From Oscillospiraceae bacterium (GTDB lineage Bacteria; Bacillota; Clostridia; Oscillospirales; CAG-272), in NCBI GenBank assembly GCA_015064005.1, contig SVTA01000002.1:1-52052 (forward strand): a DNA stretch of 52,052 nucleotides. Reading direction: 5' to 3'. Positions 36,613 through 40,188 of the stretch are shown here, one piece after another. The number at the start of each line of letters is the position of its first letter. Positions within the stretch are counted from its first letter, which is position 1. The notes under the pieces are model-generated. The model was given only the letters and a program-made list of their open reading frames with translations. It did no database searches and was not told the origin of the DNA. The translations under genes were made by a program, and so were the position numbers.

Positions 36613-37089
36613 TCAGGTATAAAACTCGGGACGTTTCCCCTCCCCCTCTGCGGCGGATGCCACCGCTGCCGGCACGCCGCTGCCGATTTCCGTTGCGGCG
36701 GGCTGGTGCTCCTGCTCCCGCGGGGGGTGCACGTCACCGCGGGGCACCAGCCCCAAGCTGACCGCGATGGCGGTGTCAATATCCGCCATCAGCGCCTCGT
36801 CCAGATGCCCCATCTTCTCCTTCAGGCGGCGCTTGTCAAGGGTGCGCACCTGCTCCAGCAGCACAATGGAATCTCTCGAAAGCCCCGCCCGCTCTGCGTA
36901 CACGTCGATGTGGGTGGGCAGCTTGGTCTTTCCCATACGGGAGGTGATGGCTGCCGCGATCACCGTGGGGCTGTAGCGATTGCCCACGTCGTTTTGTATG
37001 ATCAGCACCGGGCGCATGCCGCCCTGCTCTGAGCCGACCACGGGGCTGAGATCGGCGTAATAGATATCTCCGCGCTTTACAGTTATCAT
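36613..37089 (-). CDS. mazF: MazF/PemK (EndoA-like) endoribonuclease toxin with a ~45-aa C-terminal extension. No adjacent antitoxin gene.
   Basis: [47 protein letters not shown] is nearly canonical EndoA. All three upstream frames (37090-37270) are closed. Confidence 0.85.
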
Positions 37090-37271: not shown

Positions 37272-37312
37272 AAAAGCAGAGGCTCCCGGCATGCCGGGAG
37301 CCTCTGCTTTTT
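37272..37312. terminator. Strong bidirectional terminator separating the TIR gene from mazF
   Basis: aaaagcagaggctcccggc-at-gccgggagcctctgctttt. Confidence 0.85.
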
Positions 37313-37321
37313 GATATATGA

Positions 37322-38878
37322 TCAGAACTTTGTTAATTTTACATCCTTTGGCAGCATTTTTTTGAGCGCGCGATAACAGTGGGCCTTTTTGGAGATCCTA
37401 ATTTCCTTCAGCGCGGGGCAATCATCGAAGGCAAGCGCGCCGACCTTGGTCACCGTATCGGGAATCTCAATGCTCTTTATGCTCTCACATCCCTTAAAGG
37501 CCCAATCTCCTATTTCAAACAGGCCGTGGGCAAACGTAACAAGCTCCAGATTCTTGCAGCCCTCAAAGGCGGATTTGCCGATCTTATGCACAGTGCCCGG
37601 CACGTTTACACTAAGAAGCTCTGTACGGTTCAAGAACACGCACGCGCCGATCTCTTTGGCAGACACGGGAATCGTAATGCGCTTGCACTCGCCGCGGCAA
37701 GCGCGGAGAACGCCGTCTACGATATCAAACAGAGGCTTCGGCGCAGGGGCAGCCTTCGGCGCGGGAGGCGGTGTGGGGGTTGTCTTCTCAGTCTTCAGCA
37801 GCACGCCGTTTTCGTCTACGAATTTCACCGTTGCGGGGAAGCTTCTCTTACTGCCCTCCTTGGCGTAGCTGACGCCCTCCGGCAGATGTAGCCGCGTGAG
37901 GCTCTTACAGCCCTTGAAGGCCTCCTCACCGACGGTTTTCAGCGATTTGGGCAAGCCCACGTAGGAAAGGGAGGTGCAATCCTTAAAGGTGGCAATGCCC
38001 ACGGTGGTCACGCCCTCCGACAGGATCACCCGTTTCAGGCCGGAGCCCACAAACAAATTGCTGGATACCACCTCAACGCCACCGGGGATCGTAATTTCCT
38101 CCAGCGCGGGACAGTCCGCAAAGGCCCATGCGCGGATGGTAACCAGACTCCGGGGCAGGCGAATGCTTTTCAGCGTGGCGTTACGCTTGAACACCTCCGA
38201 GCCAATGACCGTAACGCCCTCGGGGATCTCTACCCGCTCCTTTTGCCCGTGATAGCGCTCCAAAACGCCGTCAACCACCGTCATTTCATCGTTTTTCAAG
38301 TTGAAAAGCCCAGGGGCAGCGGGCGCGGGCGCAGGTGCGGGTTCGGCAGGGGCCGGCGCAGGCTCGGGGGCGGGAGCAACGCTGGATTGGGCGGCAGACG
38401 GTGCGGGTTTTTCCGCATTTTCGGGGGGTAAGGGCGACTCCTCACGGCAGTCCGAGATCACATCCGCCTTGACCAGCTCCCTCATAAAGGAATCCAGCGA
38501 GTCGTGACGGTGATAGAACATGGCCTGGGTCAGTCCCAGCTGCATTTCCAAGCCCATCGGGAGCTTCACGTCCTCCAGGAACACTGTCAGCATCGAGCGG
38601 TCACGGCTCAGCGCAAAGGTGATCTCCTGGCGGCAGTTTTTCGAGGCAATGGACGAGGGCGACAAAAAGGCCAGCACACAGTCGGCACCCGCCAGATGCG
38701 ACGCAATGTATTCGGGCCACTCCGTGCCAGCCTCAATGCCCGCATCGTACCAAACGCGGAACCCTTGATCGATCAGCGACGAAATGATCGGCAGCACGCG
38801 CGCGGAATCCTTGTGCGCATAGCTGACGAATATGTAGGGCTGCTTTCCCTCGTAGGCCGTTGGCGTCCGTTCCATCAT
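37322..38878 (-). CDS. TIR domain protein fused through Pro/Ala linkers to two blocks of BspA-type leucine-rich repeats
   Basis: YIFVSYAHKDS...GFRVWYD...LAFLSPSSIASKNCRQEI matches the TIR fold. IPEGVTVIGSEVFKRNATLKSIRLPRSLVTIRAWAFADCPALEEITIP-type repeats match LRR_5. The ATG at 38878 follows GGGAG. No signal peptide. Confidence 0.85.
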   Translation of the reverse strand: MMERTPTAYEGKQPYIFVSYAHKDSARVLPIISSLIDQGFRVWYDAGIEAGTEWPEYIASHLAGADCVLAFLSPSSIASKNCRQEITFALSRDRSMLTVFLEDVKLPMGLEMQLGLTQAMFYHRHDSLDSFMRELVKADVISDCREESPLPPENAEKPAPSAAQSSVAPAPEPAPAPAEPAPAPAPAAPGLFNLKNDEMTVVDGVLERYHGQKERVEIPEGVTVIGSEVFKRNATLKSIRLPRSLVTIRAWAFADCPALEEITIPGGVEVVSSNLFVGSGLKRVILSEGVTTVGIATFKDCTSLSYVGLPKSLKTVGEEAFKGCKSLTRLHLPEGVSYAKEGSKRSFPATVKFVDENGVLLKTEKTTPTPPPAPKAAPAPKPLFDIVDGVLRACRGECKRITIPVSAKEIGACVFLNRTELLSVNVPGTVHKIGKSAFEGCKNLELVTFAHGLFEIGDWAFKGCESIKSIEIPDTVTKVGALAFDDCPALKEIRISKKAHCYRALKKMLPKDVKLTKF

Positions 38879-39072
38879 ACAATCTCCCAAAAATTGATAT
38901 ATGTATTAGTATAGCACGCTTTTTCGACAAAATCAAGACGCACACAGCAACAAGTTGAAAAATTATTTCCCCCTCGTCCGAATTTATTCAAAATCTTGCG
39001 CTGTATAATCTTGTAATTTTATGATAAATATGTTATACTGAAGAGGATTGCACATCATAGCACGGAGGCTTT

Positions 39073-40188
39073 ATGGAAATCCTTTCGCCACAACAGAAAA
39101 AAGCACCGCCCTGCATCAGCCGGCGGGACGCGGAGCGCCGCAGCCTTCTGACGGAGGAGGAGCTGCTGAAAATGCATCTGCAGCCCACGGCCGATCCCGT
39201 CGCCTGCACCGCCAAAAGCGACGGCGCGGTGGTCTATTACTATCATCCCAACAGGGTAAAGGAGGCGCCCCCCGCCCATTGGTACGAGCGCCCCACGGCG
39301 CCCAAAAGGGAGCTGCCTGCCGAAGCGGAGCCGGTGACCGTTTCAACCGAGGCGGGAGAGCTGCGCCGTATCAGCGGTCGCCGCGCCGAGCTTTTGGGAT
39401 ATTTCTCCGCCGAGTCGCTTTTCCAAATGTATTACGAGCCCACCCAACCGCCCGTGGCGTGCATGGTGCGCAAAAGCGGCGAGGTGGTACTGCTTTACGA
39501 CAAGGCCACCTGCAGCAGACTGCCGCTACCCTGTGTCAAATGCGGCAACAGCACCCGCTACCGCAGCAAGCTCTGCTATGACTGCTACGCTGAGGAGTTG
39601 GCAGATCGCCGCGCCAAGGGTGACGCCAAGCGGGCACAAAAATACGGAAACGACCCGAAACGGGTGCTGTTTTTTGACCTGGAGCTGACCGGTGTGTTTG
39701 AGCGGGACGAGATTCTTTCCGTGTCTATTATCAACGGCCTCGGTGAGGTGATCTTTGATTCCTACACCCGCCCCGTGCGCAACCGCAAATGGAACCGCAC
39801 CGAAAAGATCCACGGCATTACCCCCGCCATGGTACAGGATGCCCCTACCCTTGCCGAGATCGCGCCCCGTTTGCGGGAGATCGTGGCAGGTGCCGATCGG
39901 ATGATCGCCTACGGCACCTCCACGGACTATTCCCATCTGCGGAAGATCTACAGCACCAAGACGGAGCGCAATCAGCTGAAGGACAAGCTGGTGGACTGCG
40001 CCGCGGAATTTTCCCGCTATGTAGTGGAGCATGAGATCGAGCTTTCCCACCACTCCCTCACCGACGCCATGGCTCACTTTGGCTTTGACTGGAGCGGGAT
40101 CGCCCACACCTCCACCGCCGATGCCCGAGCCTGTCGGTTGGTATTTGAAGCACTTTTCCCCCATTATTACGAAAGCGAGGACGCTTGA
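39073..40188 (+). CDS. DEDDh (DnaQ-like) 3'-5' exonuclease with a duplicated N-terminal module and a zinc ribbon
   Basis: ExoI FFDLELTG, ExoII AYGTSTDYSHL, ExoIII HTSTADA. CVKCG...CYDC. Internal repeat at aa 24-66 and 109-151. Confidence 0.8.
   Translation: MEILSPQQKKAPPCISRRDAERRSLLTEEELLKMHLQPTADPVACTAKSDGAVVYYYHPNRVKEAPPAHWYERPTAPKRELPAEAEPVTVSTEAGELRRISGRRAELLGYFSAESLFQMYYEPTQPPVACMVRKSGEVVLLYDKATCSRLPLPCVKCGNSTRYRSKLCYDCYAEELADRRAKGDAKRAQKYGNDPKRVLFFDLELTGVFERDEILSVSIINGLGEVIFDSYTRPVRNRKWNRTEKIHGITPAMVQDAPTLAEIAPRLREIVAGADRMIAYGTSTDYSHLRKIYSTKTERNQLKDKLVDCAAEFSRYVVEHEIELSHHSLTDAMAHFGFDWSGIAHTSTADARACRLVFEALFPHYYESEDA

Follow-up and report, generated by a model that had tools for sequence, protein, structure and literature searches.

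A cytoplasmic TIR-LRR protein of an Oscillospiraceae bacterium: a possible single-polypeptide immune sensor from a large modular family

Can a bacterial TIR domain be coupled directly to a leucine-rich repeat (LRR) sensor within one cytoplasmic polypeptide, and would such a protein act in immunity? The question is raised by a gene on the minus strand of contig SVTA01000002.1 of an Oscillospiraceae bacterium (assembly GCA_015064005.1), of which we analysed positions 1 to 52,052, referred to here as the window. An earlier note on this DNA had judged it plausible that the gene is a stand-alone defence or sensor system, with an N-terminal TIR domain carrying an intact catalytic glutamate, two Pro/Ala-rich linkers and two blocks of BspA-type LRRs, and without signal peptide, transmembrane (TM) segment or NB-ARC module. 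This sensor-plus-effector architecture stood up throughout our analysis; association with defence islands and LRR hypervariability, which the note had named as signs of a defence role, did not. The gene and its parts are as follows.

37322..38878, minus strand: TIR-LRR coding sequence, 518 amino acids plus the stop codon (37322-37324); supported by the list of open reading frames (ORFs), Pfam, and the full-length ortholog P0002, 80% identical and in a syntenic locus
38444..38878, minus strand: TIR domain, residues 1-145; Pfam TIR_2, secondary structure in an AlphaFold2 (AF2) model, Foldseek match to AbTir, profile matches to Cat1, AbTir, TLR15 and TIR-1
38624..38626, minus strand: GAG codon for Glu85, which lies in helix aC and is predicted to be catalytic; sequence reading and alignments
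38309..38443, minus strand: flexible Pro/Ala-rich linker 1, residues 146-190; composition and AF2 local confidence (pLDDT)
37811..38308, minus strand: LRR_5 module A, residues 191-356; Pfam LRR_5 (best stretch 214-328), repeat parse, PDB entries 4fs7 and 4oju
37730..37810, minus strand: Pro-rich linker 2, residues 357-383; composition and AF2 pLDDT
37325..37729, minus strand: LRR_5 module B, residues 384-518; Pfam, AF2 and repeat parse, with 4gt6 and 4h09 aligning to residues 425-502

We tentatively propose, at a little short of an even chance, that this TIR-LRR protein is a NOD-less cytoplasmic immune sensor and effector in a single polypeptide. Apart from the domain calls, the invariant Glu85, the adjacency of separate TIR and LRR_5 genes, the lack of a conserved partner and the published precedents treated below, three features of the family favour the proposal: the 94 TIR proteins from 78 loci that we compared read as an effector joined to swappable sensors; the family shows paralog expansion, with tandem arrays and four to five loci in single metagenome-assembled genomes (MAGs); and its divergence resembles that of conflict genes, with faster change of the LRRs in one syntenic trio of loci (L008-L010), mosaic synonymous divergence, and an ortholog that carries a nonsense codon.

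A TIR domain with a predicted active site

Both the profile searches and the structure prediction bear out the TIR fold. Pfam TIR_2 (PF13676) matches residues 16-123 (E=3.9e-21; 76.2 bits against a cutoff of 28), and the AF2 model, computed from a 54-sequence alignment, contains the successive elements bA (16-19), aA (25-37), bB (42-44), aB (56-64), bC (67-72), aC (80-91), bD (95-100), aD (108-114), bE (119-121) and aE (128-144). The model has a mean pLDDT of 86.3, with 10-residue blocks of the TIR domain between 75 and 97; its global score (pTM) is low, at 0.48, and the TIR domain and the two LRR modules are therefore best pictured as independent beads on a string. When compared with the PDB by Foldseek, the modelled TIR domain matched AbTir (7uxu, TMt 0.74), Hydra TRR-2 (0.79) and BtpA (0.65), with further matches to SARM1, SPARTA TIR-APAZ, RPP1 and RPS4.

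The codon of Glu85 lies exactly where the earlier note had placed it, and the residue sits in the motif SKNCRQE-I. It is invariant among 54 homologs (alignment A1) and again in a second alignment (A2), and is at least 90% conserved over the 94 family members with differing C-termini. Also invariant in the 54 homologs are F17, S19, Y20, H22, W43, D45, G47, G51, W54, P55, S79, C82 and C144. Run against all PDB sequences, a profile built from 26 TIR domains of the family matched Cat1 (E=1.6e-9), the TIR domain of 7uxr (3.7e-9) and SpbK (2.8e-4), as well as TLR15, AbTir, C. elegans TIR-1 and SARM1. In these alignments the family motif S-x-N-C-R-x-E falls on SDWCWDE of Cat1, KNWTEYE of 7uxr, SCWCQYE of TLR15 and KDWTNYE of AbTir; because the printed alignments pair the two positions, Glu85 is predicted to be the catalytic glutamate, as the earlier reading of an intact motif had it.

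The residues preceding Glu85 depart in part from those of known enzymes. At position -4 the family has Asn81 (Asn in at least 90% of members), where Cat1, AbTir, TLR15 and the 7uxr TIR have Trp. At position -3 stands the invariant Cys82, forming a C-x-x-E pair of the plant TIR type. This pair is C132/E135 in the plant TIR L7, with Thr at the Cys position of AbTIR, and the plant Cys bears on product chemistry, not on bulk NADase activity (bioRxiv 10.1101/2021.11.09.467869). Judging from these conserved positions, the domain is likely to be catalytically competent, and its product could be unusual. Cys82 (codon 38633-38635) and Cys144 (38447-38449) are both invariant in the 54 homologs, the latter ending the TIR domain in '…PC[RKL]'; if they lie near each other in the fold, they could form a redox or metal site.

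Two LRR modules in a cytoplasmic protein

The C-terminal part of the protein was matched by Pfam LRR_5 (PF13306) in three stretches (E=2.3e-59; 199 bits against a cutoff of 27.7). Its best PDB matches are BspA-type LRR proteins, as expected from the earlier note: phmmer retrieved 4fs7 (E=2.8e-43) for the LRR part, and Foldseek retrieved 4fs7 (E=5.9e-14), 4gt6 and 4oju (TMt 0.69-0.72, root-mean-square deviation 1.4 Å for 4oju) for the LRR modules. Module A opens with an N-terminal b-hairpin cap (MTVVDGVLERYHG..VEIPEGV), continues with five repeats of 22-23 residues starting at 218, 241, 264, 286 and 309, and closes with a C-cap (KRSFPATVKF). Module B has the same order, with a hairpin cap (FDIVDGVLRACRG..ITIPVSA), four repeats starting at 403, 426, about 449 (counted by eye) and 472, and a C-cap (KKMLPKDVKLTKF). 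Residue counts and low pLDDT agree on the two linkers: linker 1 has 15 Pro and 14 Ala among its 45 residues and a pLDDT below 50 over 150-172, and in linker 2, where Pro makes up 8 of 27 residues, the same holds over 364-372.

Neither a signal peptide nor a TM segment was found, the highest 19-residue Kyte-Doolittle mean being 1.11 and strand bA of the TIR domain beginning already at residue 16. Pfam and inspection of the sequence revealed no sorting domain or LPXTG motif. The protein is therefore predicted to be wholly cytoplasmic, in line with the earlier note. That note's statement that an NB-ARC module is missing also agrees with our searches, in which no Walker A motif or other P-loop signature was seen and neither Pfam nor NCBIfam reported an NTPase domain.

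A large family with swappable C-terminal modules

A word-indexed protein search retrieved 280 relatives, the nearest being P0002 (80% identical) and P0003 (61%). Dozens of them are TIR_2 plus LRR_5 proteins of 310-650 amino acids; others resemble the window protein in the TIR domain alone (50-62% identical) and carry beside it Sel1 repeats, TPRs, a zinc ribbon, DUF6273 or membrane segments. In nearly all relatives the TIR domain comes right at the start of the polypeptide, and LRR_5 matches that have no TIR domain mostly open with signal peptides. An exhaustive search with the TIR profile gave 3,994 clusters (at 50% identity) at E<=1e-30 and 40,015 at E<=1e-10. This TIR subfamily is therefore very large and modular, with an N-terminal TIR domain and swappable C-terminal modules.

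Scanning one genome per species yielded 370 loci, of which 78 distinct ones were kept and examined. All 78 come from MAGs, nearly all of gut or rumen Clostridia (Oscillospiraceae, Acutalibacteraceae, Faecousia, Lachnospiraceae), with one assigned to Coriobacteriaceae, and single MAGs hold up to five separate loci. The 78 loci contain 105 TIR-bearing ORFs, many of them in tandem arrays (three in L014, four in L016). A Pfam census of 94 TIR proteins found LRR_5 in 33, Sel1 in 17, an FtsK/SpoIIIE motor in 7, TPR in 2, DUF6273 in 2 and a tubulin-like domain in 1, and 39 of the 94 gave a weak ThsB_TIR signal. Downstream of the TIR domain, 24 of the 94 carry a TM segment. In P0075 and at locus L023 the TIR domain is followed by a TM helix at about 164-182, a Ser/Thr/Pro linker and LRR_5, and the positive-inside flank of P0075 predicts a cytoplasmic TIR domain and extracellular LRRs. 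In roughly a quarter of the family, then, the C-terminal module (LRR_5 in some, such as P0075) would be outside the cell.

Several members have unusual arrangements. Locus L016 (3111-13808) is an 11-kb same-strand array that reads TIR-LRR_5, three LRR_5-only genes, TIR-LRR_5, one LRR_5-only gene, TIR-LRR_5 and TIR-FtsK (alpha-beta-gamma). Its LRR_5-only genes encode no signal peptides and open directly with the hairpin cap that follows the linker in the fusions. Because this locus holds both fused and separate genes, TIR and LRR_5 are linked by adjacency as well as by fusion. The seven TIR fusions to soluble FtsK/SpoIIIE DNA-translocase motors include one with a TIR domain at both ends and one with two motor domains, which adjoins a canonical 4TM FtsK; a further fusion partner of this TIR subfamily is a Tubulin_2 domain (FtsK/Tubulin_2 fusions at L019:408-3083, L066:5964-9083, L016:11715-13805 and L081:6225-9266). 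The strongest TIR-profile matches (P0121-P0125 and P0130) are proteins of 610-2,208 amino acids with four to seven tandem TIR domains; in P0121 the Glu is kept in three of four copies and replaced by Asp in one.

Source annotations of the family are generic ('TIR domain-containing protein', 'leucine-rich repeat protein'). Literature searches found no description of a bacterial family joining TIR to BspA/LRR_5 or to Sel1, and a survey of gut TIR proteins (PMC9092222) and a TIR classification (PMC7075850) do not mention a TIR plus BspA-LRR family. TIR domains are known in single-protein bacterial defence; the combination with BspA-type LRRs appears, from these searches, to be new.

Divergence of the TIR and LRR domains

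To follow the evolution of the domains, we compared the window gene with its two nearest orthologs, at loci L001 and L004, which are syntenic with the window, by the Nei-Gojobori method. The TIR domain is 83-84% identical in amino acids, with a synonymous divergence (dS) of 0.64-0.67 and a ratio of non-synonymous to synonymous divergence (dN/dS) of 0.16. LRR module A is 95-96% identical, with dS 0.15-0.17 and dN/dS 0.12-0.14, and module B has dN/dS 0.27-0.44. The hypervariability of the LRRs for which the earlier note would look is therefore not seen among these orthologs. Between the TIR domain and module A (37811-38878) there is a roughly four-fold difference in synonymous divergence, and this mosaic points to recombination or gene conversion involving alleles or paralogs. 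In the syntenic trio L008-L010, by protein identity, the TIR domains are 78-86% identical and the LRR regions 57-62%.

The L004 ortholog, the nearest one found in a genome (10001-11605, 82% identity), comes from the roe deer cecum MAG RGIG4064. Its module A is interrupted by an in-frame TGA ('VILS*GVTT'), and its NCBI annotation covers only a 286-amino-acid N-terminal part (P0004). This gene may be either a pseudogene or the product of an assembly error.

A chromosomal gene with no recurrent partner

All ORFs within 5 kb of the 105 TIR genes at the 78 loci were clustered in search of a partner, and none recurs: the top neighbour cluster, present in 8 of the 78 loci, is LRR_5 itself, followed by ABC/FtsX, MatE, PPDK and YmdB (each in at most 8). 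The earlier description as a single-gene system therefore holds over the related loci, and any effector function must reside in cis.

In phage records, matches were confined to the LRR half, none of them with a TIR domain, and IMG/VR contained one distant TIR relative. The family is chromosomal, all but missing from the phage collections (no plasmid collections were searched), and lies outside defence islands. The phage records (H1-H15, from human-gut contigs and a Lachnospiraceae phage) encode LRR_5 proteins that share 24-34% identity with the LRR part of the window protein; BspA-type LRRs are therefore common to gut phages, surface proteins and cytoplasmic TIR fusions.

In three species an ortholog occupies one conserved chromosomal position, between yicC and remA-rpoZ, an aminoacyl-tRNA synthetase gene and ppdK, on the same strand and 21-22 nucleotides (nt) upstream of remA:

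L008:10004-11443, L009:8207-9670 and L010:9992-11392: TIR-LRR orthologs in the yicC/remA context, a syntenic trio

Possible mode of action and comparison with known systems

If the TIR-LRR protein is an immune sensor, its LRR modules would bind a protein ligand, most plausibly an oligomeric phage protein or another foreign protein. Ligand binding, or LRR dimerisation induced by the ligand, would gather several TIR domains, and since TIR enzymes generally need self-association to build their active site, such multivalent binding would activate them. The assembled TIR domains would then cleave NAD+ (or NADP+), causing depletion or yielding ADP-ribose (ADPR)-type products, and growth would be arrested as in abortive infection. 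Oligomerisation would come from the multivalent ligand instead of from a STAND ATPase, as has been proposed for SpbK on the phage portal.

SpbK, from ICEBs1 of Bacillus subtilis (PDB 9phb), is the nearest parallel in organisation. In this single-protein TIR NADase, the domain other than TIR binds the dodecameric phage portal YonE, leading to activation, proposed to occur by clustering on this oligomeric phage protein, and the substitution E192Q abolishes defence (PMC11984713). Like the window protein, SpbK joins a non-TIR sensor, a linker and a TIR domain with catalytic Glu in one polypeptide, and has neither an NTPase nor a partner gene. In SpbK, however, the sensor is small and N-terminal and the TIR domain C-terminal, whereas in the TIR-LRR protein the TIR domain is N-terminal and followed by an LRR_5 sensor of about 330 amino acids; SpbK is carried by a mobile element and the TIR-LRR gene has a housekeeping chromosomal context; and the two sequences are not closely related.

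A second parallel is provided by TIR domains with solenoid repeat sensors, either fused, as in TIR-II (TIR plus TPR) of E. coli, or adjacent, as in the split pair BcTir/BcTpr of Bacillus cereus (bioRxiv 10.1101/2023.05.26.542521), a duality that is paralleled at L016. Of the E. coli TIR proteins tested, 37.5% were antiphage, and these were mostly single proteins, including TIR-II and TIR plus TM forms (PMC11350192). Defence by such systems needs the active-site residues of the TIR domain. These systems differ in that their repeat is TPR and not BspA-type LRR, that about 30% of TIR-II systems include an ATPase, and that they occur in Proteobacteria or Bacillus. Although TIR and sensor lie in one polypeptide with no obligatory partner (top cluster in 8 of 78 loci), the protein is not demonstrably a member of TIR-II or another validated single-protein TIR system, homology being confined to the generic TIR domain in both PADLOC and NCBIfam.

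Plant TIR-NB-ARC-LRR receptors (TNLs; RPP1, Roq1, RPS4) share with the window protein an N-terminal TIR domain, the motif S..(W)C..E including Cys(-3), C-terminal LRRs and occurrence in paralog clusters, and Foldseek found their TIR structures 7dfv and 4c6r to be similar. They differ by their NB-ARC/STAND ATPase; the LRRs of the window protein are of the BspA/LRR_5 type, and Trp(-4) is replaced by Asn. We know of no EDS1-like pathway in bacteria. A TNL-like or STAND architecture was rejected, as there is no NTPase and residues 146-190 form a disordered Pro/Ala linker. Animal Toll-like receptors (TLRs) likewise combine LRRs with TIR, and the paralogs P0075 and L023 have TLR topology with reversed domain order. 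The window protein itself differs from TLRs in being wholly cytoplasmic by prediction, in its LRR class and in keeping the catalytic Glu, so that it is presumably enzymatic; TLR membership was rejected because it has no TM segment.

Two further systems share single components with it. ThsB of Thoeris is a bacterial NAD+-acting TIR with weak profile similarity to the window TIR (PADLOC ThsB 5.4e-7; Pfam ThsB_TIR 0.0086). Assignment to Thoeris was rejected, the ThsB_TIR score being 16.9 bits against a cutoff of 21.2 and no ThsA-type effector lying near any of the 78 loci; at the window the neighbours are MazF, a fructose-bisphosphate aldolase and an exonuclease, with no ThsA. BspA-like surface LRR proteins (4fs7, 4gt6, 4h09, 4oju) have the same LRR_5 repeat and cap architecture, but are secreted or surface-bound with signal peptides and carry no TIR domain, whereas the LRRs here are cytoplasmic and fused to one. 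By the logic of its parts, the window protein would resemble SpbK or TIR-II, or a TNL that lacks NB-ARC, or a TLR taken out of the membrane.

Weighing the immune reading against its alternatives

A number of observations weigh against an immune role. Matches to known systems in PADLOC and NCBIfam are sub-threshold and limited to the TIR segment (residues 10-124), with PADLOC E-values of 5.4e-7 to 4.3e-4 and NCBIfam TIR scores far below the family cutoffs; NCBIfam also gave sub-threshold LRR-adhesin matches. PDB relatives of the TIR domain are matched at the profile level only (best E=1.6e-9). The Trp(-4) that nearly all TIR domains keep is Asn81 here, and the chemistry may therefore differ. 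The pTM of 0.48 says nothing about an autoinhibitory interface between TIR and LRRs. The LRRs are under purifying selection, with no hypervariability between the window gene and its two nearest orthologs (dN/dS 0.12-0.44).

The genomic setting points the same way. The window has a flat GC profile and no mobile-element genes, and a signature of horizontal transfer at the locus was accordingly rejected. The earlier note had suggested that homologs might be enriched beside known defence genes; a census of the 149 nearest neighbour proteins at 69 loci, within 2.5 kb, by PADLOC (E<=1e-8) and Pfam found no such enrichment. PADLOC matches among them are few and generic (mad3 three, mad8 three, radical-SAM 'pVip' two plus two, and PD-Lambda-2_B, mad1 and AriA one each), and the Pfam profile is one of housekeeping functions (YmdB, DJ-1, RemA, RpoZ, CstA, DAHP synthase, YicC, IMPDH, glutamine synthetase). 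Because the yicC/remA-rpoZ position is shared on the same strand by three species, the gene looks stably inherited.

Several of these observations feed the strongest alternative, which we consider unlikely: that the family consists of physiological TIR receptors, soluble or transmembrane, that respond to cues from the cell itself or its environment (for example envelope state, nutrients, development or sporulation) and regulate NAD+ or ADPR-type metabolites. Housekeeping neighbourhoods, the operon-like yicC/remA-rpoZ position, native GC content, purifying selection on all domains and the near-absence from phage collections (the only mobile-element collections searched, plasmids not included) would all fit such receptors, as would the 24 of 94 members with a TM segment, whose outward-facing sensor could therefore not see intracellular phage proteins. 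Yet tandem arrays, rampant C-terminal swapping and multiple copies per genome are unusual in housekeeping regulators, the fusions to FtsK-type motors and a tubulin-like NTPase are reminiscent of conflict systems, one ortholog may be a pseudogene, and literature searches gave no bacterial TIR enzyme with a housekeeping role.

Less probable still is that the TIR domain makes a cyclic or linear ADPR-type messenger, in the style of ThsB or plant TNLs, for a shared receptor encoded elsewhere, so that many sensors would feed one hub. The many paralogous TIR sensors per genome with no adjacent effector, the weak ThsB_TIR signal in 39 of 94 members and the invariant plant-type Cys(-3)-x-x-Glu motif, whose Cys is tied to product chemistry in plant TIRs, are consistent with this; but receptors of the SLOG, Macro, SAVED or STING type were not encountered within 5 kb of any of the loci (2.5 kb in the Pfam/PADLOC census), and unlinked sensor-effector pairs are, to our knowledge, rare in bacterial systems.

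It is improbable that the TIR domain is a non-catalytic scaffold, serving protein assembly only as in animal TLR adaptors while the LRRs recruit a partner. The replacement of Trp(-4) by Asn81 and the presence of non-enzymatic TLR and MyD88 TIRs among the Foldseek and profile matches would suit a scaffold; the invariance of Glu85 and of the adjacent Ser79 and Cys82 would not, and the top profile matches (Cat1, the 7uxr TIR and AbTir) are enzymatic.

Export by a non-classical route against host or competitors, as a Tcp-like TIR effector or BspA-like adhesin, is the least credible explanation: LRR_5 is typical of gut-bacterial surface proteins (4gt6 'cell surface protein', PcpA, TpLRR), signal peptides are present in LRR_5 homologs that have no TIR domain, and Pro/Ala/Thr-rich linkers are common in wall-associated proteins, but this protein lacks a signal peptide and a TM segment as well as LPXTG and any other sorting domain, nearly all relatives have TIR at the extreme N-terminus, the flank of the TM paralog P0075 puts the TIR domain in the cytoplasm, and there are no secretion-system genes among the neighbours.

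Returning to the immune sensor, its widest form would hold that gut and rumen Clostridia possess a large paralogous repertoire of NOD-less TIR receptors, cytosolic (TIR-LRR_5, -Sel1, -TPR, -FtsK) as well as transmembrane (TIR domain inside the cell, outer module LRR_5 in some), whose BspA-type LRRs recognise foreign proteins directly, as a bacterial equivalent of TNL and TLR logic, and which lie among housekeeping genes. We regard this generalisation as rather doubtful; in it, NAD+-derived chemistry might be the common output of all the sensors, or they might even act through one unlinked receptor.

Implications

Should the proposed mechanism be correct, a bacterial TIR effector would be coupled directly to an LRR sensor without a STAND ATPase, a minimal form of the TIR-LRR logic of plant TNLs and animal TLRs. 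BspA-type LRRs, known only from surface proteins, would gain an intracellular recognition role, and a family of thousands of clusters would have escaped discovery based on defence islands and guilt by association because it sits among core genes. If the proteins instead serve housekeeping NAD+-linked signalling, they would represent a new physiological role for bacterial TIR domains. The family offers natural comparisons for the study of TIR activation, between soluble and transmembrane forms, fused and split forms, and LRR, Sel1 and FtsK partners.

Transcription unit and neighbouring genes

The listed minus-strand ORF (37322..38890) opens at an upstream TTG; the preferred start is the ATG at 38878 within it, from which the 518-amino-acid product is translated. 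The ribosome-binding site supports this start, which the earlier note had also used, and the ortholog N-termini MEHMPTAYEG and MKQTTTAYEG begin at the same place. The signals around the gene are:

38884..38888, minus strand: ribosome-binding site GGGAG, 5 nt from the ATG at 38878; read directly from the sequence
38908..38936, minus strand: putative sigma-70-like promoter, TTGATT-17 nt-TG-TATACT, about 30 nt 5' of the start codon; 9 of 12 consensus positions, with an extended -10 TG
37272..37311, minus strand: intrinsic terminator hairpin, a perfect 18-bp stem with a 4-nt loop followed by UUUU; RNA fold

The intergenic region (38879-39072) is AT-rich and divergent, with a second promoter-like site for the neighbouring gene at 39011-39039. 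The terminator, placed at 37272-37312 in the earlier note and now confirmed by RNA folding, has a folding energy of -36.1 kcal/mol (z = -8.6; none of 200 shuffles was equally stable); a consensus scan had overlooked it because its T-run is short. With its own promoter-like site and terminator, the gene is likely to be a monocistronic unit, as had been suggested.

Near neighbours of the TIR-LRR gene are an orphan MazF/PemK toxin, a class II fructose-bisphosphate aldolase (FBA), an acyl-ACP thioesterase, a CDF transporter, the divergent DnaQ-like exonuclease, DUF2007, ThiI and CobW-type GTPases; farther off in the window lie ABC transporters, DinB, a glycoside hydrolase and a solute symporter. 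In relatives anchored by their FBA (82-89% identity), both MazF and the TIR-LRR gene are absent upstream of FBA, and when metagenomes were scanned with FBA for presence/absence polymorphism at the window locus, synteny upstream of FBA was lost at all 80 loci, so that no indel could be defined. The toxin gene (36613-37089, minus strand; Pfam E=1.3e-35) encodes a C-terminal extension of about 45 amino acids, and no antitoxin-sized ORF is present in the 230 bp upstream or 123 bp downstream of it; an orphan MazF also stands beside the TIR-LRR gene in the orthologous loci L001 and L004.

The divergent gene on the plus strand (39073-40188), for which a scan of JGI metagenomes, made for the same polymorphism, found no relatives, encodes a DnaQ/RNase_T-type exonuclease with its exonuclease domain at residues 200-354. 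The N-terminal part of this protein contains a duplicated module of about 40 amino acids (…LQPTADPVAC… and …YEPTQPPVAC…) and a CxxC…CxxC zinc ribbon.

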